Source of the DNA: Spirochaetota bacterium
GTDB lineage: Bacteria > Spirochaetota > UBA6919 > CBDBPB01
DNA: 64,000 nucleotides
NCBI GenBank assembly: GCA_965208615.1
Contig: CBDBPB010000003.1
Span: 1-64,000, forward strand
Reading direction: 5' to 3'
Both the position numbers and the translations under genes were made by a program. Positions 24,800 through 36,830 of this stretch are shown here, piece after piece. How positions within the stretch are numbered: position 1 is the stretch's first letter; the number at the start of each line of letters is the position of its first letter. Under the pieces are notes generated by a model that worked only from the letters and a program-made list of their open reading frames with translations, made no database searches and was not told the origin of the DNA.

Positions 24800-27292
24800 A
24801 TGTCTTCTATCTTTTCTAATCAAGCTATCAACTATATCAAAACCGAAATACAAAAAGCAAATGGAAATGAAGTTTTTTTTATTGGTTCCAAAAAAAATAG
24901 TAAGCAAATTAACACTATTAGCCATATAGCTCGTGGAAATAAAAACGAAGTCCCTGTAATATATGATCAGGCCTTCAAAGGGGACTATGTTATCCATAAT
25001 CACCCTAGTGAGAATCTTAGCCCTTCTCATAATGATCTATCCATAGCAAGCTATCTTGGTAATCAGGGTATTGGCTTTATCATAGTGAATAATACTGCTG
25101 ACAAAAGCTATGTAGTTGTAGAAGGTGTTGATAATTCTGAAATAAGCCCCATAAATATTAGTGAACTACTTTCCTTATTTGATGAGAAGGGTAAAATAGC
25201 TACCCACTTTAACTCTTTTGAACTTAGGGAACCTCAAGTTAAAATGCTTAAAATAATTGCAGAGGCATTTAATGATAACAATATCGCCATAATTGAGGCT
25301 GGTACAGGTGTAGGAAAGTCTATAGCATACCTTATACCAACAATATACTGGGCAACTACTAATAATGAAAAAGTAATTATATCCACAAATACTATTAATC
25401 TCCAAGAACAGCTCTATAACAAAGACATTCCCTTTTTGAAAAAAGCCTTGGATATAAACTTTAAAGCTGTAGTAGTTAAAGGAAGAGCTAATTATATTTG
25501 CTTAAAAAAACTTTATTCCAGCAAAAATGACATGAATAATGAGCTTTTTGAGCCTTTTGAAAAAACATGGATAAAAAGTCTTATATCTGCTATACCTAAT
25601 CTGAAAGAAGGTACTAAAGATGAACTAATCACCATAACCAATATGGAAGGATGGTATAAAATTGCATCTGAGTCTGATACATGCCTTAGAACTAAGTGTA
25701 ATTTCTTTTCAAAATGTTTTTTCTTCATAGCACGAAAAGAGGTCAATCAAGCAAATATTTTAGTGGTTAATCATCATATTTTATGCAGTGACATTATTAT
25801 CAAAAATGATGCAGGTGACTCCTACGGCCTGCTACCCCCGTATAATAAAGTTATTATTGATGAGGCTCACAACCTAGAACATGTTGCAATAAACTATTTA
25901 GGTAAATATACCTCTCAAAGTAAATTAAAAAAAGCTATTTCTAGAATATATTATTTAAAAGGCTCTGCAGAAAAAGGAATATTATCCCATATCAAAAGAG
26001 AAATTAAAACAAACTGGTCTAACTCAGGATATGAAATAGTCGATGAGCTAACTAATCTATTTAATAATGAGTTAACATCGAGTATTCTGTCCATCAACCC
26101 TCTAATAGATAGCTTTTTTCTATTTATAACAGACTACACCCTAAAACAGCTAAATAATAAACAAGATACACTGCGTATTATTCCTGATAATCTGCCTGGT
26201 GACTTTGCTAATAACCTTAATAATCTTGGTGGTGAACTTGTTAACATAATTATAAACCTTAATGATAAACTAGTTAACATAATTAGTAAACTCTATGAAT
26301 TGCCTTTCCATATTAGAGAAGAGCTTTTAGATAATATTAATACACTAAAAGCATATACCAATAGACTGCTTTTATCTGCCATATCTCTAGATACGTTTAT
26401 TAACTTCAAAGACAATGATACCGTTTATTGGATAGAAGTCAAAAAAAACCATAATACTACTGTAAATTTAAATGTATCCCCATTAAATATTGCCGATGTT
26501 TTATGTGATACTTTTTTTTCCACCAAAGAAAGCATTATATTAACTTCTGCTACTTTAACTAGTAATAATAGCTTTCACTTTCTAAAACAAGAGCTTGGAA
26601 TCTTAAATATCGATAATAGCGATAGACTAGTTGAAATCGCTTTACCATCCTCATTTGACTATGAAAAACAAATGTCTATATGCATTCCAACAGATATACC
26701 CCTACCTAACGAAAAAACCTTTAATAATATGGTAACCTCTTTACTAATTAAGATCTTAGAGTTAACCAAAGGTAAAACTTTTATTTTATTTACGTCCTAC
26801 GGCATGCTAAATTATAGTCATGAGGTTTTATCTAATCATTTTAAAAACTCTATAACCCTATTAAAACAGGGAGATATTAATCGTCATTCCATAATAAACA
26901 AGTTTAAGACAGGCAGTAACTCTGTAGTATTAGGAACAGATTCCTTTTGGGAAGGTGTTGACGTTGCTGGTAATTCATTGGAATGCGTTATACTAATAAA
27001 ACTTCCTTTTTCTGTTCCTAGTGATCCCATACATCAAGGTAAGGTAGAGAGGATCGAACAAAATGGGGGAAATCCTTTTTATGACTATTCAATACCAAAA
27101 TCTGTAATTAAGTTTAGACAAGGATTTGGTAGACTAATAAGAACTACTAAGGATAAGGGTATTGTTATATGTTTAGACAAAAGGATTATAACAAAATCCT
27201 ATGGTAAGATATTTCTTAATTCTTTACCAAAGTGCAAAGTGGTTATTGGGGATAATTTTAAACTATTGAAAGAAATAGTTAAATACTTTTAA
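24800..27292 (+). CDS. dinG: DinG/YoaA-family helicase with N-terminal JAB/RadC-like domain
   Basis: EAGTGVGKS, KGRANYIC, IIDEAH, TSATL, FWEGVDV, QGFGRLIR; N-terminal HNHPS...PS..D. Confidence 0.92.
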   Translation: MSSIFSNQAINYIKTEIQKANGNEVFFIGSKKNSKQINTISHIARGNKNEVPVIYDQAFKGDYVIHNHPSENLSPSHNDLSIASYLGNQGIGFIIVNNTADKSYVVVEGVDNSEISPINISELLSLFDEKGKIATHFNSFELREPQVKMLKIIAEAFNDNNIAIIEAGTGVGKSIAYLIPTIYWATTNNEKVIISTNTINLQEQLYNKDIPFLKKALDINFKAVVVKGRANYICLKKLYSSKNDMNNELFEPFEKTWIKSLISAIPNLKEGTKDELITITNMEGWYKIASESDTCLRTKCNFFSKCFFFIARKEVNQANILVVNHHILCSDIIIKNDAGDSYGLLPPYNKVIIDEAHNLEHVAINYLGKYTSQSKLKKAISRIYYLKGSAEKGILSHIKREIKTNWSNSGYEIVDELTNLFNNELTSSILSINPLIDSFFLFITDYTLKQLNNKQDTLRIIPDNLPGDFANNLNNLGGELVNIIINLNDKLVNIISKLYELPFHIREELLDNINTLKAYTNRLLLSAISLDTFINFKDNDTVYWIEVKKNHNTTVNLNVSPLNIADVLCDTFFSTKESIILTSATLTSNNSFHFLKQELGILNIDNSDRLVEIALPSSFDYEKQMSICIPTDIPLPNEKTFNNMVTSLLIKILELTKGKTFILFTSYGMLNYSHEVLSNHFKNSITLLKQGDINRHSIINKFKTGSNSVVLGTDSFWEGVDVAGNSLECVILIKLPFSVPSDPIHQGKVERIEQNGGNPFYDYSIPKSVIKFRQGFGRLIRTTKDKGIVICLDKRIITKSYGKIFLNSLPKCKVVIGDNFKLLKEIVKYF

Positions 27293-27756: not shown

Positions 27757-28392
27757 TTAAAACAGCTTAGGCTTTTCTATAGTGCTTATTGTTCGAAAAA
27801 AGTTTAAAGCCGTATCAGTTGACCAGTCATGAGCTTTACTCACAATCTTTCCCAGTATGGTATTATCTTTAGCAATTAAATATGTTGTAGGAGTTTTAAG
27901 TTTATCCACAAACTTTTTATAAAGAATATTATTAGGGTCTAGTAGGATAGTAAAATTATATCCATTCATTTCCGCATACAGTGGTATTGATTCTTTATCC
28001 TGATTAAGGCATACACTTACTATTACAAAATTGGGATCATTCTTAACCTTTTGATATAACTTCTCAACCGTAGGCATCTCCTTAGTACAATATGGACACC
28101 ATGTAGCCCAAAAAATAAGGAGTATCATTTTATTTTTAAACTGTGCATTAGTTATTTTATTTCCGTTAATGTCCTCTAGTTCAAAGGCAGGCATACTATC
28201 CACCTTAAGGTTAAGTGGAGCTTTAAAGTCAAGTAACTTAAAAGATTCCTTTATATTAAGCTTAGTTTTTTGCACTTCTACTTTTTTGTCTTGTGTTTTA
28301 TTTGTAACTTTCTTTGTATTACATTGTACAAGAGTATATACTAAAGACAAACAAATAAAAAAATAAAATATTTTACGAATTACCATTATCAA
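27757..28392 (-). CDS. TlpA-family thiol-disulfide oxidoreductase (probable lipoprotein)
   Basis: FWATWCPYC..EMP; N-terminal signal ending LVQC. Confidence 0.9.
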   Translation of the reverse strand: MIMVIRKIFYFFICLSLVYTLVQCNTKKVTNKTQDKKVEVQKTKLNIKESFKLLDFKAPLNLKVDSMPAFELEDINGNKITNAQFKNKMILLIFWATWCPYCTKEMPTVEKLYQKVKNDPNFVIVSVCLNQDKESIPLYAEMNGYNFTILLDPNNILYKKFVDKLKTPTTYLIAKDNTILGKIVSKAHDWSTDTALNFFRTISTIEKPKLF

Positions 28393-28418: not shown

Positions 28419-28913
28419 TTATTGTTTTAAAGAATTTATAATATTTAAAATTTCATCCTCAATTAGCTTAATACTTTTTTCAACTATCTCTATTTTTTCA
28501 CTTTCTTTTGGCATATCCAAAAACCTTATAGCATTACTAGCCAAAAAAGTACCAACAACTACGTCATTACCCTTTTGATATATATAAATTTTACAGGGAA
28601 TAAAAGCTCCAAAGTCTCTTGTTATTTTAAATATTTCTTTCCCTATAGTTAAATTGCAAAACTGATATACCTTATACTTTGGAAAATCTTCACCTCTTGC
28701 TTTCATTCCAGCTTGTATATCCAAAGCAGGTTCAAATACTCTCATATTAGCTCCAGAGAGTTCAGCCTCTAAAAGCGTTGCTATAGTATCAAAATCAGCA
28801 TCTTTGATTGTTATTTTATATATAGGATTAGTCCAACTACAACCTACCGCAAAAAATAAAAGTGTTAAAGTTAGTATCATAAAGTGTTTTTTTATCTTGT
28901 GTAATTTAAACAT
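28419..28913 (-). CDS. DUF302-domain lipoprotein
   Basis: YQFCN...GAFIPCKIYIY; lipobox FAVGC; DUF302 is common in sox clusters. Confidence 0.82.
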   Translation of the reverse strand: MFKLHKIKKHFMILTLTLLFFAVGCSWTNPIYKITIKDADFDTIATLLEAELSGANMRVFEPALDIQAGMKARGEDFPKYKVYQFCNLTIGKEIFKITRDFGAFIPCKIYIYQKGNDVVVGTFLASNAIRFLDMPKESEKIEIVEKSIKLIEDEILNIINSLKQ

Positions 28914-29093: not shown

Positions 29094-30812
29094 TTAAGCA
29101 TAATATTTTATACCACTATTAGCCTCTATCCTAACTTTTCCTTTCTTTTTTAAATAGTCTCGAACTACATCATATACAGGCTTAGCTCCTTGTCTTAGGT
29201 TTGAGCCTGCTCTATACAAATTACCACCCCAAGCAGAAATCTTATACAACTTTTTAGGATTAAACGCCTTGCCATCTATCTTAATACTTTCTATAGGTAT
29301 TCTTTTCAAAACAGGAGCGTTAATTTTAATAGACATCTCAACACCAAGTAAACGACTAAAGTCTCCCCCTTGTTGTTTATAGGGGTCAGAATTAAATAGG
29401 TTATCTAAGATATCTTCAAATATCATCCACAGTTGTTCTCCCTGCATATCAAAGGTCCAAACATTAGGATAAGTAATAGATGTATGATCATAAACATCTT
29501 TCATAGTTATCTCATCCCCTGGTAATAAGGTTGTTCCCCAACGGTAACCAGGTGAAAAGACAATCTCTGGATCATAAGTATCTTTTATTGCCTCAACAAT
29601 AAGCTGATCAAATGTTCCCATGAAGGTATCTCTTCTATATAAAAGACTTTCTGTAACAGCTAGTTTTTCATATAGCTTTACTTCATATGGTTTATGCCAT
29701 TTATCTATAAGCTCCTGCATCTTTGGATCAGGTGGAATAAAATTAGAAAGAACAGGTAGTAGCTTATGTCTAAAGTTAGCAATTTTCTTATTTTGCACAT
29801 CAAGGTCAATTCTCCCTAAGAACTTTCCATGAGAACCAGCCTGAACTAAAATGGTATTACCAATCTTAAGAGCTTTTGGAAGAGGATCATGGGTATGACC
29901 TGTTATAAGTAAATCAATTCCTTTAACCTCTTTTGCTATTTTCTTATCCACTTCTAAGCCATTATGGCTCAAAACTATTACAATATCCACCTTATCTTCG
30001 TTTTTAAGCTTATCAGTAAGCCTTTGGATATTAGAAGGCCTAATTCCAAAAGACCATCCTTCAGAAATATGGTTATTTTCCTCAAGAGTTCGTGGATGTG
30101 CAAGGGGAACATAAGGAAAAGACTGACCAATTATTCCAACCTTAACATCTTTTGTTTGTTTTATAACATACTCTTTAAAAACTTTGTCGCCTTCTTTTTC
30201 AAAGTCAGTATAAACAACATTCTGGCATACAAAATCAGCTTTAAGCTGTTTAATTCTTTTAAAGAGAATATCTTGTCCAAAAGTGAACTCCCAATGAGGA
30301 GACATAACATCAATACCCAATAAGTTTTGAGCTTCTACAAGAGCTTCACCTTCAGTTAGCAGTCCAATACCTGTTCCAACCCAAGTATCTCCTGAATCCA
30401 GGAATAGACATCTATCTTTACCTCTATCAGACATAATCTGCTTTGACAAAGTAGACAAATGAGCATATCCTCCCATTTTACCGTACTTCTTAGCTAAATT
30501 AGGAAAGTCAAGATAAGACTGAAAGTATGCTTCTTTAGTACCAGAATTAATGTTCCAATACTTAAGACGGTCTTTACCTACAATATGTCCTGGAGTATTG
30601 GTCATATTAGCAGGTGCAAGATTTAGAGAAGGTTCTCTATAATATATTGGTCTAAGATGAGCATGACTATCTGCTATAAATAGTATAGTTAGATTGCCCA
30701 AGGGATCAAACTCATAGAACTTTTCTGCGTCACTACACTGTTCAAGAGATAGACCTGTAACTAAAGCTAATTCTAAAGCTAAAGTTGCTTTTAAAAACTC
30801 TCTTCTATCCAT
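29094..30812 (-). CDS. soxB: Thiosulfohydrolase SoxB
   Basis: Tat motif MDRREFLK; DSHAHLRPIYYREPSLN; DSGDTW; HWEFT; GHTHD; FSPGYRWG; QQGGD. Confidence 0.96.
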   Translation of the reverse strand: MDRREFLKATLALELALVTGLSLEQCSDAEKFYEFDPLGNLTILFIADSHAHLRPIYYREPSLNLAPANMTNTPGHIVGKDRLKYWNINSGTKEAYFQSYLDFPNLAKKYGKMGGYAHLSTLSKQIMSDRGKDRCLFLDSGDTWVGTGIGLLTEGEALVEAQNLLGIDVMSPHWEFTFGQDILFKRIKQLKADFVCQNVVYTDFEKEGDKVFKEYVIKQTKDVKVGIIGQSFPYVPLAHPRTLEENNHISEGWSFGIRPSNIQRLTDKLKNEDKVDIVIVLSHNGLEVDKKIAKEVKGIDLLITGHTHDPLPKALKIGNTILVQAGSHGKFLGRIDLDVQNKKIANFRHKLLPVLSNFIPPDPKMQELIDKWHKPYEVKLYEKLAVTESLLYRRDTFMGTFDQLIVEAIKDTYDPEIVFSPGYRWGTTLLPGDEITMKDVYDHTSITYPNVWTFDMQGEQLWMIFEDILDNLFNSDPYKQQGGDFSRLLGVEMSIKINAPVLKRIPIESIKIDGKAFNPKKLYKISAWGGNLYRAGSNLRQGAKPVYDVVRDYLKKKGKVRIEANSGIKYYA

Positions 30813-30848
30813 AAAATCTTCCTCCTATACTCTTAGCATACTAGTTTT

Positions 30849-31622
30849 TTATCTTACCCATCCTGGAACATCTATCTTTGCACCTTGAGCTTTATGAGTA
30901 ATATATAACTCAAGAGCTGTTAGTGGAATAGAACCAGTTTTTAATTTTTTCATTCTAGCATTTTTCATACATTGCCTAAACCTTTGCTCTATTAAATAAG
31001 CATTACCTTTTCTCATTCTGTATGCAGGCCAATGAGAAGCACCACTTCCAATAGCAGCTAGTTTTTGCATTCTAAGAGTTTTACCAGGTAGAATATCATG
31101 GCAGACTTTGCAAGATAAGTTTCTTTGTCCTCTTCGTTGGCTATAAACTAATTTACCTAGTTCATACCATTCTTTTGCTTTTCCATCAATCTTTACATTA
31201 ACAGGCATCCCATTGGATAGTGATTTAATATAAAGAGTCATAGAAGTCATTTCATAAGAACCAAGCTTTATGGTTTCTTTTGGTGCAAAAGATTTTATAC
31301 ATACGTTAATTTGCTTTTGAAGACTAACCATAGTTTTGGCAGACTTAGTGATCTTAGGATAAGTTGCAGCAACACCTTTTAAATCACTTTCTGGCTTTGC
31401 ATGGCAAGTAAGACAAGATTTTCCTTCAGAGCCTCTTTTCTTACCAAGAAACTTTTTTCCTTCATCAATCATTATATCAGCAGGGTTTATCCCGCTACTA
31501 TACAATGATAGATCATCTTTTGATATACTCTCAGTTTTTTGTGCAGGTAGAGTAATAGCTATAAAGGCCCCTATTACAACTACAACTGTAAAAATAGAGT
31601 ATTTAAATAGTTTTTTTCTCAT
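30849..31622 (-). CDS. soxA: Diheme cytochrome SoxA
   Basis: CLTCH and CKVCH; RRGQRNLSC; HWPAYR; RFRQCM; LELY. Confidence 0.95.
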   Translation of the reverse strand: MRKKLFKYSIFTVVVVIGAFIAITLPAQKTESISKDDLSLYSSGINPADIMIDEGKKFLGKKRGSEGKSCLTCHAKPESDLKGVAATYPKITKSAKTMVSLQKQINVCIKSFAPKETIKLGSYEMTSMTLYIKSLSNGMPVNVKIDGKAKEWYELGKLVYSQRRGQRNLSCKVCHDILPGKTLRMQKLAAIGSGASHWPAYRMRKGNAYLIEQRFRQCMKNARMKKLKTGSIPLTALELYITHKAQGAKIDVPGWVR

Positions 31623-31624
31623 AG

Positions 31625-32098
31625 CTAATCTCCTGCCTTAACATCTACTGATTTCTCAAAAATATTGTCTTTATTATCCTTCCAAACAACTTTTAAAGGT
31701 GCAGATTTTATAACCTTTAGCTTAAAAGAAAAATAAGGATCTTTACTTATAGATGGATGTGTATCAAGTGAAGCTATATTTGCATCTCCATAATATACAC
31801 TTATATTTTTTATATAATGTACGGGTTTAGCTTTTTTGCCAATACCAGTATGCTGAGGATGTGTTATAACTGTTTTAACTTCTATAACATCTCCTTTTTT
31901 ATAATTTCTTGGTAACCGTATAAGAGCCTTACCAAATTTATTATTTTTCTTTTTTTCAGCAGAGGTTTTAGGTTTTTCTATTTTAGAAGAAGTTGAAGGT
32001 TTTGCTTCTTCTTTTTTTGTCTCTGGTTTTTGACAATTGTTAATGGAAACTAGAAAGACCATTACCACTAAAGCACCAAACACTCTTATTGTCATCAT
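31625..32098 (-). CDS. soxZ: Sulfur carrier SoxZ with N-terminal lipoprotein-like extension
   Basis: EVKTVITHPQHTG, HYI, SISKDPYFSF, WKDNK; located between soxY and soxA. Confidence 0.92.
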   Translation of the reverse strand: MMTIRVFGALVVMVFLVSINNCQKPETKKEEAKPSTSSKIEKPKTSAEKKKNNKFGKALIRLPRNYKKGDVIEVKTVITHPQHTGIGKKAKPVHYIKNISVYYGDANIASLDTHPSISKDPYFSFKLKVIKSAPLKVVWKDNKDNIFEKSVDVKAGD

Positions 32099-32194
32099 TG
32101 TTCTCCTTAATTATTAATTAATTTAATTATTTTATTAGACTCCAAATAGCTTTTGGACTCACTCACACAATACTACTAGATTTTTTATTATATA

Positions 32195-32626
32195 TTAACC
32201 GCATCCACCAATAGTAACCTTTATTGTTTTTTTAGCAGTATATACTTTACCATCATTCATTACAGCATAAACTCTAACTTCAGATGTTTTTCCCATTCTA
32301 ATCCTAGTTGAAAAACCAACAGCTCCCATATCAGGAGTTAGTTTGCTTAAGAATACCTTTGGATTAGGATTACCAGGCACTAAAACAGATAAAGATTCAA
32401 CATAATTATCTTTAGTTATAGGAAGGTCAACACTTATAGAAATAGGAATAACAGCTCCATTTTCAGCAATAACTGGAGCTTTAATATTCACTTTTTTAGA
32501 GCTTATTAACTGTTTTCCTTTTGTTACATCTTTAATGATTTTTTTTAGCTTAGCACTATCCTTTCCATAGCCTATAACTCCAAATATTACTAAACAACTA
32601 ATTAACATAATTTTTACTTTTCTCAT
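32195..32626 (-). CDS. soxY: Sulfur carrier SoxY
   Basis: APVIAENGAVIP, STRIRMGKTS, C-terminal swinging arm VKVTIGGCG-type motif. Confidence 0.95.
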   Translation of the reverse strand: MRKVKIMLISCLVIFGVIGYGKDSAKLKKIIKDVTKGKQLISSKKVNIKAPVIAENGAVIPISISVDLPITKDNYVESLSVLVPGNPNPKVFLSKLTPDMGAVGFSTRIRMGKTSEVRVYAVMNDGKVYTAKKTIKVTIGGCG

Positions 32627-32664
32627 TATTTGATCTCCTTGATTTATTTTTGTTAATATAGTAA

Positions 32665-33183
32665 CTACTTTAAAGTATTTAAATAAGCTACTATATCCAC
32701 AATATCTTGTTCAGACAAAACTTTTGTCGGTAATGCCGGTGGCATAACAGTTGACTTAAGTACATACCTTCTATCAGCAATAACTTGGAATAACCAATCA
32801 TCATTTTTATAATTTTTATCACGGCCCAAGTTAGCTCGGTATTTTACTAAAGAAAAACCTATATCACCACAACCTTTTGCATCTTCTGTACAATGACAAG
32901 CTGCACAGTTTCCAGTTTTTGTATTAGAAAATATTTTTTCTCCTTTTTTAGGATCACCTTTCAATCCTTTGGGATATGAATATTTTACTGGATTAGGGTT
33001 TATGTCAGAAAATATTTTTTTAGCATCAAACTTGCCATCTGTTTTATAGTCAGCAAGTGATTTGCCTTTAACGTTAGTATCTTTAGCAGTCGATTTCTTT
33101 TTTTCACCTTGACATCCTGACAAAAACATCATGGCGAAAACAATAAATATACTAAAGGTATACGTCATAATTTGTTTATACAT
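32665..33183 (-). CDS. soxX: Cytochrome c SoxX (lipoprotein)
   Basis: GDPKKGEKIF...GNCAACH...TVMP...LSEQDIVDIVAYLNTLK; lipobox LSGC. Confidence 0.93.
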   Translation of the reverse strand: MYKQIMTYTFSIFIVFAMMFLSGCQGEKKKSTAKDTNVKGKSLADYKTDGKFDAKKIFSDINPNPVKYSYPKGLKGDPKKGEKIFSNTKTGNCAACHCTEDAKGCGDIGFSLVKYRANLGRDKNYKNDDWLFQVIADRRYVLKSTVMPPALPTKVLSEQDIVDIVAYLNTLK

Positions 33184-33419: not shown

Positions 33420-34013
33420 TTAGCGGTTTAACATATCAGGTTTTACAAATAACAAAAACCTTACCAAAAAGAAAGTAACTATACCCTCTATAACAGCAAC
33501 AGGGATATAAGCTATAACTAAAGACCTAAGTAGATATTGAACTTTCTCTCCGGTATAGACTAATATAAATATAGTAATTATGGTTGTCATCATAATGGCT
33601 AATGCAGATAATATACCTGCCCATATACTTAGGTATAAACTTGATCCCTTAAGCCTTTTGAATATTAAGTGAACAATAAAAGCAGGTAATCCCAAACTTA
33701 GACTTGTTAGACCAATCATGGTTACCCCTCCATGCTGGAACATTATTGATTGTAAAAAAAGCCCAATCACAATGGATATTATAGATAATTGCCCTAATAC
33801 TATTCCCATTAATCCGTTTAGGGATAAGTGAATAGATACTCCTCCTATAGGGATATTAATTAAAGAGGTTACAAAAAATGAGGCAGTCATAATGGCTGTT
33901 TTAGGTATATCTTCCTGATTAATCTTTTTAAGAGATATATAACTAAGACCAGCAGATATTATATATCCTCCTATAAAGAGTTCAGGTTTTACTATTCCGT
34001 CTGGCAGGTGCAT
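33420..34013 (-). CDS. cbiM: CbiM/NikM ECF Co/Ni substrate-binding membrane component
   Basis: MHLPDG N-terminus; HLSLNGLMG; QHGG; IEG. Confidence 0.92.
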   Translation of the reverse strand: MHLPDGIVKPELFIGGYIISAGLSYISLKKINQEDIPKTAIMTASFFVTSLINIPIGGVSIHLSLNGLMGIVLGQLSIISIVIGLFLQSIMFQHGGVTMIGLTSLSLGLPAFIVHLIFKRLKGSSLYLSIWAGILSALAIMMTTIITIFILVYTGEKVQYLLRSLVIAYIPVAVIEGIVTFFLVRFLLFVKPDMLNR

Positions 34014-34021
34014 ATATTATC

Positions 34022-34456
34022 CTATATTGTCTTTTTCTTTCTCATAAAGAAAAGTGCCGTACCAATTAGTCCCCAGCATACAGATAAGGCAATAATTATT
34101 TTGTGCATGCCAGATAAGTTATTAGATTCACTTGTAGCAATCATATCTTTATTAACTTGTATAGTAAGCCGTCCGCCATGTCCTGATCTATCCCTAAATA
34201 AGGCTATCCACTTTCCAGGCTTATCTGGCTTAAAGAAAAACATACCATTTTTATTCAACTGGGATAATATAACAGGTTCATCTTTATTATTTGGAGCATA
34301 AATAGAAACCTTACCAAAAAAGGCCTTACCTAACTCATCCTTAACTGATATACCTATTATCCCTTTTTTGATTATCTTACTACTTATACCATGAGAATAG
34401 CATATAGATACGCTAAATACTAAAACAGCAATCAGAATCACTCTTTTTAGATACAT
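34022..34456 (-). CDS. NikL/CbiL-like accessory protein
   Basis: Signal peptide ending ..SHG; NGMFFFKPDKPGKW; GH; C-terminal TM; directly upstream of cbiM. Confidence 0.65.
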   Translation of the reverse strand: MYLKRVILIAVLVFSVSICYSHGISSKIIKKGIIGISVKDELGKAFFGKVSIYAPNNKDEPVILSQLNKNGMFFFKPDKPGKWIALFRDRSGHGGRLTIQVNKDMIATSESNNLSGMHKIIIALSVCWGLIGTALFFMRKKKTI

Positions 34457-34540
34457 ACAAACAACCTATAATATTAGTTTATATTTATACAAGAACAATA
34501 CTTCATTTTTAATATTAATTTTAGCAGATAAAAATATTAA

Positions 34541-34819
34541 TTACAGCTTAAACCCTTTACCAGCAAACTGTATATTATTTTGATCGTTACTCCTAGGAGG
34601 GGATACTGCATGTACTCCATCACAATAGGGACATAATCCAACATAGGTCTCCAGTATAAACTCCTTACCACAGCCCTGACACTTTGTCTTTAATGGACCA
34701 TTCGTAATTGGTTGATTTCTTATTGCTCCATTATGTGCGTTATAAACGAACTTAACAAGTTCAAGTCCTTCTGAGAATGGGCTTCCTTGTCCATCACCAC
34801 AACTATTACAGCTTGACAT
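34541..34819 (-). CDS. Small Cys-rich metal-binding protein
   Basis: CxxC motifs (CNSC, CQGC, CPYC); RBS AGGAG. Confidence 0.75.
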   Translation of the reverse strand: MSSCNSCGDGQGSPFSEGLELVKFVYNAHNGAIRNQPITNGPLKTKCQGCGKEFILETYVGLCPYCDGVHAVSPPRSNDQNNIQFAGKGFKL

Positions 34820-35415: not shown

Positions 35416-36761
35416 ATGCTAAAACTAGACTGGAATACCTTTGATCAATTTTTAAGAAAAACCTTTCCTAAAGATCAAGAGTTATGGTTAAATTATGTGA
35501 AGTTCTTATCATCGTCGGATAATGAAGTCTTTATATCAGTACCCAATCAACTTTACAAAGAAAGAGTCTATAGTAAATACTATAAAGCTTTAAACCAGCT
35601 ATACAAAAAACAGTTTAATAAAAAACTAAATCTCAATGTTATGATCGGAGAAGAAGAAGATATAATTGTTAAACCTACAAATAATAACCACTTCACACAA
35701 AAAACTAATAATAACTCGAAAATTAATAATAAATTAAAACTAGATATAAAATATACTTTTGATAGCTTTGTAGTAGGTAATAATAGCCTATTAGCTCATG
35801 CCGCTGCCCGAAGGATAGCTAGTGTACCCGGTGAAAATTATAATCCATTTTTTCTATATGGAGGTGTAGGACTAGGTAAAACCCATCTAATGCAGGCTAT
35901 TGGGCATCAGGTTACCATTAAAGAACCCTTTATGGAAGTAATATATGTTACCAGTGAACAGTTCACCAATGAATATATAGTATCACTACAAAAAGGCCAG
36001 GTTCATGCATTTAGACTTAAATATAGAAACGCAGATTATACTTTTAATTGATGACATTCAGTTCTTAGAAAGAAAAGAGGGAATTCAAGAAGAACTTTTT
36101 CATACATTTAATATGCTAAAAGATTCAGGTAAACAAATGGTCTTTACCAGTGATAGATCCCCCAGAGAGCTTAAAACTATTAAGGATAGATTAATATCCC
36201 GTTTTTCATCCGGATTAGTAGCCGATATTAAACCTCCTGACTTAGAAACCAGAGAAGCCATTATCAGAAAGAAAATGATAGAAAATCAAATTGTAATAAA
36301 TAAAGAAATTATTAACTTTTTGGCAACAAATATTACCAATAATGTTAGAGAATTAGAGGCATCGGTTATTAAGCTAAAATCCATTGTAGACCTGCTAAAT
36401 GAAAAATTAACACTAAAACGAGTCGAAGAAGAATTACAGGATATACTAAATTGTAATCTTACAAAAAAACACATTTCTGTTGAACCTATACAAAAAGAAG
36501 TCGCTAACTACTATAATATTAGCTATTCAGATATGAAGTCAAAAAAAAGAACCGATGTTATTGCCAAACCACGTCAAGTTGCAGTTTATCTAACTAAACT
36601 TCTTACTAACTTGTCTACTACCGAAATTGGAAACGAGTTTGGTGGTAGAAATCACTCAACTATTATAGCCTCATGTAAAAAAATAGATAAAGAAACTTAT
36701 ATCAAATGAATCCACCCGTAACGATATTGATCATCTAAAAGCTAAGCTTTTACGTATATAA
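35416..36761 (+). CDS. dnaA: Chromosomal replication initiator DnaA (two apparent +1 frameshifts, near 36038 and 36695)
   Basis: YTFDSFVVG, YNPFFLYGGVGLGKTHL, LLIDDIQF, NVRELE, FGGRNHSTI; removing the extra bases restores one frame ending at TAA 36761. Confidence 0.95.
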
Positions 36762-36830
36762 TAGAATCATACTAAAAAACTAACTCTGTTAAAAGCCTTA
36801 TTAACGTAAATTATTATATAGGATAATCCA

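Follow-up and report, generated by a model that had tools for sequence, protein, structure and literature searches.

A spirochaete sox operon with a SoxY lacking a twin-arginine signal and a SoxZ bearing its own putative lipoprotein leader

Background

The primary literature on the canonical export of SoxYZ concerns Paracoccus. As outlined in a passage of PMC4449882, the Tat leader on SoxY carries the signal-less SoxZ along. We studied a sox operon in a 64,000-nucleotide stretch of spirochaete DNA (hereafter, the window), for which a first-pass annotation had claimed that the Sox subunits appear lipid-anchored, that SoxY lacks a Tat signal, and that SoxY and SoxZ are exported separately by Sec. 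The locus raises the question of how SoxZ would leave the cytoplasm if SoxY cannot carry it, and where the Sox proteins would then be held.

Results

The genes lie on the minus strand in the order soxX-soxY-soxZ-soxA-soxB-DUF302-tlpA (Table 1). All seven ORFs, each taken from the first start codon after the preceding stop, are intact, and SoxX, SoxY, SoxZ, SoxA, and SoxB all exceed the NCBIfam cut-offs (5/5). AGGAG is found upstream of the ATGs of soxX (7 nt 5' of the start), soxY, and soxZ. The N-termini quoted in the first-pass annotation were all found exactly as written. In the same window, dnaA is frameshifted; thus, the assembly has sequence errors or pseudogenes. The source genome belongs to a sparsely sampled class of the phylum, distinct from that of Leptospira and Leptonema, and the spirochaete marker FlaA gave eight matches in it versus none in 14 control genomes.

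Table 1. Genes of the sox operon and their N-terminal features
Feature	Position	Strand	Description
soxX	32665-33183	-	172 aa; TIGR04485 70.7 bits (cut-off 61)
soxX leader	33112-33183	-	classical lipobox L-S-G-C, Cys24
soxY	32195-32626	-	143 aa; TIGR04488 132.3 bits (cut-off 125)
soxY leader	32564-32626	-	residues 1-21; no RR, Sec-type; likely SPI site after G-Y-G
soxZ	31625-32098	-	TIGR04490 81.7 bits (cut-off 76); PF08770 87.3 bits (Pfam)
soxZ leader	32033-32098	-	residues 1-22; n-region, hydrophobic core, I-N-N-C (Cys22); pLDDT <50
soxZ tether	31937-32032	-	residues 23-54 (32 residues), K/E/P/S/T-rich, no predicted structure
soxZ domain and stop codon	31625-31936	-	residues 55-157; PF08770, TIGR04490
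soxA	30849-31622	-	257 aa; TIGR04484 212.8 bits (cut-off 110); two CxxCH motifs
soxB	29094-30812	-	572 aa; TIGR04486 728 bits (cut-off 550)
soxB leader	30735-30812	-	Tat motif D-R-R-E-F-L-K, end L-E-Q-C (Cys26)
DUF302 gene	28419-28913	-	164 aa; PF03625 58.5 bits (Pfam)
DUF302 leader	28839-28913	-	classical lipobox A-V-G-C, Cys25
tlpA	27757-28392	-	TlpA/ResA-like periplasmic thioredoxin, 211 aa; AhpC-TSA 74 bits, Redoxin 68.5 bits
tlpA leader	28321-28392	-	end L-V-Q-C, Cys24

As claimed earlier, the SoxY leader contains no twin arginine. Its hydrophobic stretch covers 16 residues (I6-G21), with Cys11 within the core, and SoxY itself, as judged from this leader, is not lipid-anchored. The mature protein has the canonical length and ends in GGCG. 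A check of the ORF and of the sequence upstream found no in-frame soxY start further upstream; with only 38 nt between the soxX stop and the soxY start, and with the ORF taken from the earliest start that follows a stop, a hidden Tat leader is excluded. RR occurs within the first 30 residues in 115/120 SoxY among the database matches listed, the other five being the query and four apparently N-truncated sequences. Among the 97 SoxY ORFs from 108 loci, 89 have RR; the eight exceptions are the query, a truncated ORF, a KR variant, divergent paralogues in two related genomes (G001 and G002, see below), and three over-extended ORFs in which RR lies deeper in the sequence. Tat is available and yet SoxY lacks RR: the source genome encodes TatC and two TatA, and SoxB retains a Tat motif. 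In a SignalP table of PMC10853474, one SoxY of Acidithiobacillus caldus is listed as Sec/SPI and SoxZ as signal-less; thus, by that table, Tat-less SoxY calls are already in print at the level of prediction.

SoxZ was said to have a hydrophobic leader ending in SINNC and a linker, and both are present. Two adjacent ATGs are preceded by AGGAG, and the only in-frame start codons are codons 1, 2, 6, 11, and 13, so the tether is translated whichever start is used and no true start lies downstream of the leader. The fraction of K/E/P/S/T is 0.81 in the tether versus 0.41 in the tethers of the other candidate lipoproteins of the genome and 0.30 in the proteome. In the AF2 model, residues 7-52 have pLDDT <50, and residues 57-153 form a beta-sandwich, mostly at high confidence. 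A metagenome SoxZ (P0002, 70% identical) has an identical S-I-N-N-C-Q-K block and a diverged tether. The 150 SoxZ cluster representatives comprise 118 unextended sequences, 18 fused or long forms, and 14 extended ones; two of the 150, the query and P0128, combine a tether with a leader whose last residue is a lipobox-like Cys, and P0128 has a classical L-S-C box and a G/S/K tether. At the loci, 100/106 SoxZ ORFs are leaderless, and 3/64 word-search matches, summarised as leader-bearing lipobox SoxZ, exceed 125 aa. The soxZ leader is real, as judged from the ribosome binding site, the lack of a start after codon 13, the block kept in P0002, and the classical box of P0128. This survey of N-termini found the SoxY/SoxZ layout to be rare, not common in other Sox systems.

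In a structure model of the YZ complex, one of the checks proposed earlier, the mature SoxY and SoxZ domains were predicted to pair with a score of 0.88 (best of three controls, 0.00), by a prediction whose score mark was met by 58/80 solved complexes and 2/110 mismatched pairs. Between runs, at least 95% of the contacts agreed, and the partner pLDDT was at least 92. As SoxYZ structures have already been solved, the predictor may simply be reproducing them. A SoxY exported unfolded by Sec cannot carry a passenger; therefore, a SoxY without RR and a SoxZ with a leader are logically coupled, and the basis for this coupling is the source operon and a paralogue pair in G002, as a search for the SoxY partners of P0002 and P0128 did not recover them.

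For the other proteins, the predicted leader ends (LSGC in SoxX, LSLEQC after a Tat motif in SoxB, FAVGC in DUF302, and LVQC in TlpA) were also located. SoxX has a Lys-rich tether of about 28 residues between Cys24 and the conserved cytochrome c domain. The SoxA leader is of the Sec type, about 27 residues long and without cysteine, so SoxA is not lipid-anchored; its type and its end (..A-Q-K) are the same in G001 and G002. SoxB is a candidate Tat-lipoprotein. Thus, the claim of lipid-anchored Sox subunits is supported for most of the proteins, in that the leaders of SoxX, SoxZ, SoxB, DUF302, and TlpA end in Cys, SoxY and SoxA being the unanchored ones.

SoxX and DUF302 satisfy the classical lipobox rule, which we take to be PROSITE PS51257, when it is applied by hand. 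The same rule rejects SoxZ (N-N at -2/-1), SoxB (E-Q), and TlpA (Q at -1); thus, these three would depend on a relaxed spirochaete lipobox. The positions of their cysteines are kept in relatives, while the -1 residue differs. According to passages in Fouts et al. (2016, PMC4758666), verified spirochaete lipoproteins can have Asn at -1, some orthologues from Leptospira have Gln or a charged residue there, and Leptonema has two Lgt paralogues. The source genome, which besides the Tat genes encodes two Lgt, LspA, and a LolA-like gene, resembles what is described there in having Asn or Gln at -1 and two Lgt paralogues, but it belongs to another class and relaxed Lgt/Lsp specificity is only putative here; a relaxed lipobox in this genome is plausible. 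In a crude census of the genome, the hydrophobic region ends in a Cys in 105/336 signal-like ORFs (31%), so 5/7 in one operon is only modestly unusual (binomial ~0.03). Cys follows Q in 6/35 and N in 5/89 hydrophobic/hydrophilic boundaries, for comparison with a proteome Cys frequency of 0.95%. N at -1 was not enriched in the census, which takes in the operon's own proteins (6/113, 5.3%, versus 6.5% before any Cys). A stronger signal than the 5/7 count comes from comparison with other lineages, whose versions of these proteins are without such features.

Among 401 genomes sampled from the phylum, the only other Sox-bearing ones are G001 and G002, from the same order. Their SoxX-like cytochromes have a lipobox and a tether (G-I-S-C; F-A-G-C; L-Y-Q-C followed by six Gly), the SoxB leaders end in Cys at the same place (F-E-A-C in G001, L-E-D-C in G002), and the leaders of the TlpA orthologues after soxB end in L-Q-N-C (G001) and S-L-A-C (G002). 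Judging from these leaders, the whole spirochaete order, and not just this window, has the lipobox on SoxX, SoxB, and TlpA. G001, with soxYZAB-tlpA and soxX elsewhere, shares the tethered SoxX, the SoxB Tat leader ending in Cys, the lipobox TlpA, and a SoxYZ carrier tethered via a low-complexity linker. However, its anchor is on SoxY (Tat leader, L-A-N-C, and a tether of about 45 residues) and its leaderless SoxZ hitch-hikes, whereas in the source operon the anchor would be on SoxZ and SoxY would pass via Sec. SoxY of G002 has no lipobox; thus, not every member of the order tethers its carrier. In the SoxB tree, the three spirochaete proteins group in a single clade (SH-aLRT 97), sister to a Nitrospinota-like sequence, and the SoxYZ tree gave the same five-member clade (support 98).

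The closest sequences found are those of a Nitrospinota soxXYZAB operon (L007) and a related metagenome locus (L039), with the order X-Y-Z-A-B, an adjoining thioredoxin-like gene, and identities of 45-59% (SoxX 57%, SoxA 58%, SoxB 59%, and SoxZ 52%). Shared features are the SoxY end G-G-C-G and a homologous SoxB leader core (A-x-E-L-A-x-V-T-G). In contrast, the Nitrospinota signals are all canonical (an untethered SPI-type SoxX, a Tat SoxY, and a leaderless SoxZ), and the SoxB Tat leader ends in A-L-A instead of E-Q-C. The source pair likewise resembles canonical SoxYZ in gene order (soxY, then soxZ), in the G-G-C-G end of the swinging arm, and in the predicted interface, and differs in the SoxY without RR and the SoxZ with a leader, a lipobox-like Cys, and a tether.

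In the G002 paralogue pair (L006), SoxY and SoxZ each have their own non-RR leader; however, these are divergent paralogues (arm H-G-C-V-Q-G) outside a sox operon, and the SoxZ leader is without a terminal Cys. Single-chain SoxY-SoxZ fusions among the representatives, also outside a sox operon, have Sec-like leaders. Thus, the SoxY and SoxZ folds can be exported independently of Tat; unlike these proteins, the source SoxYZ is the operon's only pair and a canonical one (above the TIGR04488 and TIGR04490 cut-offs). A SoxB with RR and a leader ending in Cys also occurs in six marine-type metagenome loci (L066, L067, L073-L075, and L097). In Aquificota sox clusters, a DUF302 lipoprotein directly follows soxB; of 14 DUF302 ORFs at other loci, eight carry a lipobox and lie downstream of soxB, all Aquificota-type. 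Thus, these two items are not a rewiring peculiar to the source genome, although in those loci the boxes are classical (L-S-G-C; S-C-G-G) and the signals of SoxX, SoxY, and SoxZ are canonical.

Discussion

The sox system was probably acquired and then lipid-anchored, with one anchor to each module and the export logic of SoxYZ inverted. This sparsely sampled order would have acquired a truncated thiosulfate-oxidising Sox system, soxXYZAB lacking soxCD, from a Nitrospinota/Aquificota-like donor and then fitted it to a lipoprotein-rich envelope. In the source genome, each functional module would carry a single lipid anchor at an N-terminus, on a flexible tether and presumably held in a membrane. 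SoxXA would be anchored via SoxX, the SoxYZ carrier via SoxZ, SoxB by the Cys at the end of its Tat leader, and the accessory DUF302 and TlpA proteins by their own lipoboxes. Having lost its Tat leader, SoxY would be exported unfolded by Sec, with probable cleavage by signal peptidase I; SoxZ, unable to hitch-hike, would have acquired a Sec lipoprotein leader and a tether of its own. As SoxY is without RR and SoxZ bears a leader, the heterodimer would have to form after export, in the periplasm. The separate Sec export proposed in the first-pass annotation is supported by the RR-less SoxY despite the Tat genes and by the SoxZ leader, and its membrane-tethered complex by the classical lipoboxes of SoxX and DUF302 and the conserved cysteines of SoxZ, SoxB, and TlpA.

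It is unlikely, in our view, that SoxY and SoxZ are exported separately by Sec but SoxZ, SoxB, and TlpA stay unlipidated, with SPI-cut leaders, cysteines that are incidental or form disulfides, and all Sox proteins except SoxX and DUF302 soluble in the periplasm. I-N-N-C, L-E-Q-C, and L-V-Q-C do fail the classical rule, but orthologues keep the Cys exactly at the hydrophobic end as the -1 residue varies, and a relaxed spirochaete lipobox is documented in parts of PMC4758666. The lack of enrichment of N at -1, the soluble-type SoxY of G002, and the plain Sec leader of its paralogous SoxZ also fit soluble proteins; on the other hand, SoxZ has no good small-residue SPI site near Cys22, its disordered tether is like those of the genome's other candidate lipoproteins, and the box of P0128 is classical.

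We give still less credit to the SoxY N-terminus being an uncleaved signal-anchor, which would place SoxY in the inner membrane and tether SoxYZ doubly. The hydrophobic stretch is long for a cleaved signal but short for a membrane span; the G-Y-G site is only moderately good by the -3/-1 rule, but G21 is as far from the conserved A-P-x-I-A-E-N-G block as is the Nitrospinota SoxY cleavage site, so SoxY has no spacer, and an anchored SoxY would keep its swinging arm near the membrane. An artefact (misassigned starts, or a Tat leader concealed by a frameshift) or decay of soxYZ is very improbable: the frameshifted dnaA speaks for it, but none of the seven ORFs is broken, too little space lies between soxX and soxY for a hidden leader, soxZ has no downstream start and keeps its leader in P0002, and the domains exceed curated cut-offs and are predicted to pair. 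On the reading that we favour, acquisition followed by lipid anchoring and inverted SoxYZ export, the separately signalled SoxY and SoxZ of this spirochaete would be a rare variant of the textbook joint-export arrangement.

Gene cluster and genomic context

The sox genes of the window form a cluster of seven genes, soxX-soxY-soxZ-soxA-soxB-DUF302-tlpA, in tandem orientation on the minus strand (see the table). The identities of the Sox proteins were taken from NCBIfam and were backed by Pfam. SoxY ends in V-T-I-G-G-C-G, which is the expected carrier arm G-G-C-G(-G) shortened by one glycine, and the same shorter end is found in Nitrospinota, Aquificota, and the two same-order spirochaete genomes with Sox, G001 and G002. 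In the genome, which is 99.4% complete (2.46 Mb, 9 contigs, 31% G+C), PF00174, the SoxC-type molybdenum domain of the sulfane dehydrogenase SoxCD, gave no match; therefore, the Sox system is of the truncated kind. The genome also encodes heme-copper oxidases. FlaA, the flagellar sheath family of spirochaetes, is matched eight times in it and not once in 14 control genomes.

The gene for CbiM (cobalt/nickel uptake) is located directly upstream of soxX, together with genes for a 144-residue protein that has a signal and a C-terminal membrane span and no Pfam match, and for a small zinc-ribbon protein that resembles HypA (18.4 bits, below the cut-off). These three may constitute a metal-uptake module. 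The window also encodes an 830-residue DinG-type helicase (Helicase_C_2, DEAD_2) with a RadC-like JAB domain at the N-terminus. In the case of dnaA, the gene is split into two overlapping ORFs; the first frame ends in F-R-L-K-Y-R-N-A-D followed by a stop, and the conserved I-L-L-I-D-D-I-Q-F-L box resumes in the next frame. Thus, there is a one-base frameshift near 36030-36045, which may reflect a mistake in the assembly or a genuine lesion of the gene. Reads from one DNA data set matched the window at 33856-33880, 35721-35739, and 36037-36800 only; they do not reach the sox genes and do not span the frameshift.

Coordinates of the sox cluster and of other genes in the window, its genome (G000), and the related genome G002
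Feature	Location	Position	Strand	Match or description
soxX	window	32665-33183	-	TIGR/NCBIfam equivalog, 70.7 bits (cut-off 61)
soxY	window	32195-32626	-	NCBIfam equivalog, 132.3 bits (cut-off 125)
soxZ	window	31625-32098	-	NCBIfam equivalog, 81.7 bits (cut-off 76)
soxA	window	30849-31622	-	NCBIfam equivalog, 212.8 bits (cut-off 110)
soxB	window	29094-30812	-	NCBIfam equivalog, 728 bits (cut-off 550)
DUF302 gene	window	28419-28913	-	Pfam match
tlpA (TlpA/ResA-like thioredoxin)	window	27757-28392	-	Pfam AhpC-TSA/Redoxin
Stretch upstream of soxX	window	33420-34819	-	CbiM (PF01891), 144-residue protein, HypA-like protein
DinG-type helicase gene	window	24800-27292	+	Helicase_C_2, DEAD_2
dnaA	window	35416-36709	+	ORFs 35416-36051 and 36005-36709
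lgt	G000, C7	257072-257863, 35369-36193, 33565-33780		two full-length genes and a fragment
tatC	G000, C4	250495-251358		TatC
soxY/soxZ paralogue pair (L006)	G002, C158	209-1185	-	divergent pair
SoxX-like cytochrome genes (L117)	G002, C150	823-2070	-	two in tandem

Leaders and start sites

The N-termini that the first-pass annotation had quoted for SoxY, SoxZ, SoxX, SoxB, DUF302, and TlpA were all found as written, which confirms the initial observation. The SoxY leader consists of a short basic stretch followed by a hydrophobic core of 16 residues; residues 1-21 contain no RR, and no start codon lies upstream. A Tat leader concealed upstream of soxY was ruled out because only 38 nt separate the soxX stop from the soxY start and no start codon lies between the preceding stop and the one at which the ORF opens. 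Each of soxX, soxY, and soxZ has AGGAG ahead of its ATG.

SoxZ has a 22-residue leader ending in I-N-N-C (Cys22), followed by a flexible tether of 32 residues rich in K/E/P/S/T. The possibility, raised in the first-pass annotation, that the true soxZ start lies downstream of the leader is excluded, as the only start codons in frame are codons 1, 2, 6, 11, and 13; thus, the gene cannot yield a leaderless SoxZ. In the AlphaFold2 model of SoxZ, pLDDT is below 50 at residues 7-52, and the beta-sandwich of residues 57-153 is mostly of high confidence. The leaders of SoxX, DUF302, and TlpA end in L-S-G-C, A-V-G-C, and L-V-Q-C, respectively, and that of SoxB contains the Tat motif D-R-R-E-F-L-K and then L-E-Q-C.

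L-I-S-C of SoxY (Cys11) was rejected as a lipobox, since only five hydrophobic residues precede it, it falls outside the range of 14-40 seen in our genome census, and the mature protein would start with a hydrophobic stretch. The soxY-soxZ spacer is unusually long (96 nt); a hairpin sought in it folded no better than shuffled sequences (z = -0.06).

Frequency of the leader types

A survey of SoxY and SoxZ N-termini, a check that the first-pass annotation had proposed, showed that both leader types are exceptional among the comparators. RR occurs within the first 30 residues in 115 of the 120 best database matches to SoxY; the other five are the query itself and four seemingly N-truncated sequences. 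The 108 genome and metagenome loci (duplicates not removed) contain 97 SoxY ORFs, 89 of them with RR. Eight lack it: the window's own SoxY, a truncated ORF, a K-R variant, three ORFs that are over-extended and have RR further inside, and two divergent paralogues from the related genomes.

The search for SoxZ was exhaustive over 1.84 billion representatives and gave 220 matches. Among the best 150 of these 220, 118 are not extended at the N-terminus, 14 carry at least 15 extra residues there, and the remaining 18 are fusions or long proteins. A hydrophobic leader is present in five of the 14: the query, P0128 and P0134 (two other extended SoxZ proteins), and two proteins with RR. P0128 has a classical L-S-C box and a G/S/K tether, and P0134 has a plain Sec leader. 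Sec-like leaders were also seen on SoxYZ fusions among the representatives. In the locus set, 100 of 106 SoxZ ORFs are leaderless. A profile word-search gave 64 SoxZ sequences, only three of which exceed 125 residues (those of the window, P0002, and P0128). P0002, a metagenome SoxZ, is 70% identical to the window's protein overall; S-I-N-N-C-Q-K is kept exactly and the tether has diverged. A metagenome scan for the SoxY partners of P0002 and P0128 gave 70 loci, with an identity to the query of at most 52%; the contigs of P0002 and P0128 were not among them. The genome scan for related loci, which covered genomes other than that of the window, was run with a 6-sequence alignment.

As for the other proteins, which were read by eye in the locus set, a lipobox was found on one of 35 SoxX ORFs, that of the window. 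DUF302 ORFs beside soxB in other loci have an S-C-G-G lipobox in 8 of 14 cases, all of Aquificota type, and 6 of the 53 SoxB ORFs, all at marine-type metagenome loci, have RR and then a classical L-S-G-C. The DUF302 lipobox and the Tat-lipobox SoxB are thus not special to this genome. The closest operon is the Nitrospinota soxXYZAB cluster L007, to which the metagenome locus L039 is related (identities: SoxX 57%, SoxA 58%, SoxB 59%, SoxZ 52%, and SoxY 45%). Unlike those of the window, the signals of L007 are all canonical: SoxX has an SPI leader without a tether, SoxY has a Tat leader, and SoxZ has none. The SoxB Tat leader of L007 shares its core with that of the window, whereas its end is A-L-A in place of E-Q-C. 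Each single feature of the window's operon is rare though not unique, and the whole is coherent.

Full-text literature searches turned up no paper in which SoxX or SoxZ is described as a lipoprotein or a canonical SoxY as exported by Sec. PMC13500833 mentions no Spirochaet, signal peptide, or Tat in its main text, and PMC11237559 mentions no signal peptide or lipoprotein. A SignalP table in PMC10853474 lists one SoxY of Acidithiobacillus caldus as Sec/SPI and the SoxZ as signal-less; the Acidithiobacillus SoxY sequences that we fetched carry H-R-R-Q-F-L.

Putative lipid anchors

The classical lipobox (PROSITE PS51257) has a small residue at -1, an L/V/I-type residue at -3, the Cys at position 15-35, and K or R near the N-terminus. 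When this rule was applied by hand, SoxX (L-S-G-C) and DUF302 (A-V-G-C) matched it, and SoxZ (I-N-N-C), SoxB (L-E-Q-C), and TlpA (L-V-Q-C) did not. The latter three fit a relaxed spirochaete lipobox, with the Cys kept at the end of the hydrophobic region across orthologues: in SoxZ the box is identical in P0002 and classical in P0128, and in SoxB and TlpA the Cys is kept in three of three spirochaete orthologues each. The putative lipid anchors put forward in the first-pass annotation thus agree with the classical rule in SoxX and DUF302, and only with the relaxed spirochaete lipobox in the other three proteins.

Passages of Fouts et al. (2016, PMC4758666) describe verified spirochaete lipoproteins with Asn, Ser, or Cys at -1, some Leptospira orthologues with Gln or a charged residue there, and two Lgt paralogues in Leptonema, which are linked to the relaxed lipobox. 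The processing genes of the present genome comprise two Lgt paralogues, LspA, and a weak LolA-like match (25.3 bits); a third lgt stretch is a fragment with a stop.

In a crude census, 2222 greedy ORFs of the genome were filtered for those in which a basic n-region is followed by a hydrophobic stretch without charge, then by a Cys, and lastly by a hydrophilic stretch. This gave 113 candidates, in which the -1 residue was mostly S (35) or G (27), followed by A (8), Q (7), F (7), and N (6). At hydrophobic/hydrophilic boundaries, the next residue was Cys after 22% of G, 17% of Q (6/35), 14% of S, 9% of A, and 5.6% of N (5/89), the baseline being a proteome Cys frequency of 0.95%. Both counts take in the operon's own proteins. 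N at -1 was not enriched in this census over its general frequency before Cys. A boundary Cys is present in 31% of signal-like ORFs, so that five out of seven in the operon is only a mild departure from expectation (binomial, about 0.03). K/E/P/S/T make up 81% of the SoxZ tether, compared with a mean of 41% in the first 30 residues after the Cys of 109 other candidates and 30% in the proteome. From the sequences, we infer lipidation, cleavage of SoxY by SPI, and assembly after export.

Proposed export and assembly of SoxYZ

SoxYZ is a textbook pair of Tat hitch-hikers. In the established model, as given in a passage of PMC4449882, SoxY alone has the Tat leader and SoxZ is exported with it. Neither part holds in the window, where SoxY lacks RR and SoxZ has a signal, although the Tat machinery is present: the genome encodes TatC and two TatA, and SoxB keeps D-R-R-E-F-L-K. 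The change in SoxY is therefore not forced by loss of the pathway. The TatC gene lies just downstream of the two TatA genes; within its single open frame of 330 residues, the Pfam model is matched in two separate parts (positions 1-131 and 128-208), which implies an insertion of about 75 residues in the middle of TatC.

We propose that SoxY is exported by Sec and crosses the membrane unfolded. It would then be unable to bring SoxZ along, so that SoxZ would need its own signal, here apparently of the lipoprotein type with a tether. Each module would have one anchor: SoxX for SoxXA, SoxZ for SoxYZ, and SoxB itself. For the complex of the two mature proteins, a model that the first-pass annotation had suggested building, pairing is predicted with a score of 0.88, versus 0.00 for the best of three controls. 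Among solved complexes, 58 of 80 reached the mark, as did 2 of 110 mismatched pairs. At least 95% of the contacts were shared between runs, and the pLDDT of the partner was 92 or higher. This prediction reflects likeness to solved SoxYZ structures and is not proof that the pair binds. The earlier proposal that SoxY and SoxZ are exported separately, assemble after export, and are tethered is supported as far as the sequence reaches.

Comparison within the order

SoxZ above the Pfam cut-off was found in 3 of 401 sampled genomes of the phylum, namely that of the window, G001, and G002, all from one order. The SoxB Tat leaders of G001 and G002 also end in Cys (F-E-A-C and L-E-D-C), and that of G002 is followed by a Lys/Ser tether. 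In the TlpA gene after soxB, the leader ends in L-Q-N-C or S-L-A-C. The SoxX-like cytochromes of these genomes, which are encoded elsewhere, have G-I-S-C, F-A-G-C, and L-Y-Q-C plus six Gly, each with a tether. The lipobox trait thus belongs to the lineage. In G002, two such cytochromes with lipoboxes lie in tandem (L117); in one of them, six Gly follow the Cys immediately and some 23 Arg/Lys residues form a C-terminal tail, an odd feature for a cytochrome of the periplasm.

The carriers differ. In G002, SoxY has a plain Tat leader and SoxZ none, whereas in the window SoxY has a Sec leader and SoxZ a lipobox and a tether. In G001, the SoxY Tat leader ends in L-A-N-C and is followed by a tether of about 45 residues, and SoxZ is leaderless; in contrast, the candidate anchor in the window is on SoxZ. 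G002 also has a divergent SoxY/SoxZ paralogue pair outside any sox operon (L006), with H-G-C-V-Q-G in place of the carrier arm G-G-C-G. Both proteins have their own non-RR leaders, so that here again a Tat-less SoxY is accompanied by a SoxZ with its own signal.

In a quick SoxB tree, the three spirochaete sequences formed one clade (SH-aLRT 97), sister to a Nitrospinota-like sequence (99), with Aquificota next (100). A concatenated SoxYZ tree gave the same five-member clade (98), with no resolution inside it. In the sampled genomes of the phylum, SoxZ exceeded the cut-off in one order only, and the closest Sox sequences are from Nitrospinota and Aquificota, an indication that the sox genes of this order were acquired horizontally.

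Implications

This finding adds a full soxXYZAB cluster to Spirochaetota, a phylum in which SoxZ exceeded the cut-off in so few of the sampled genomes. It also suggests that Sox proteins with a non-classical lipobox and SoxY without a Tat leader should not be discarded as mis-started in annotation.

Spirochaetes route many of their lipoproteins outward; thus, a tethered Sox system might sit on the outer membrane or face outward. We regard as speculative, and rather improbable, the wider reading in which the modules, each with an anchor and a tether, form a two-dimensional membrane-tethered Sox relay, sister lineages anchor opposite carrier subunits, and the relay perhaps lies on the outer membrane or faces outward. 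If true, an outward Sox would reach sulfur species closed to soluble periplasmic Sox, and the operon would be a natural experiment in which SoxYZ needs neither Tat nor pre-assembly in the cytoplasm. A carrier taken off Tat, with a passenger exported by a lipoprotein signal of its own, would be evidence that the two can form the heterodimer after export, and the operon would be a test case for the reason why proteins without cofactors use Tat. In this order, a horizontally acquired periplasmic pathway appears to have been refitted, module by module, to an envelope dominated by lipoproteins.
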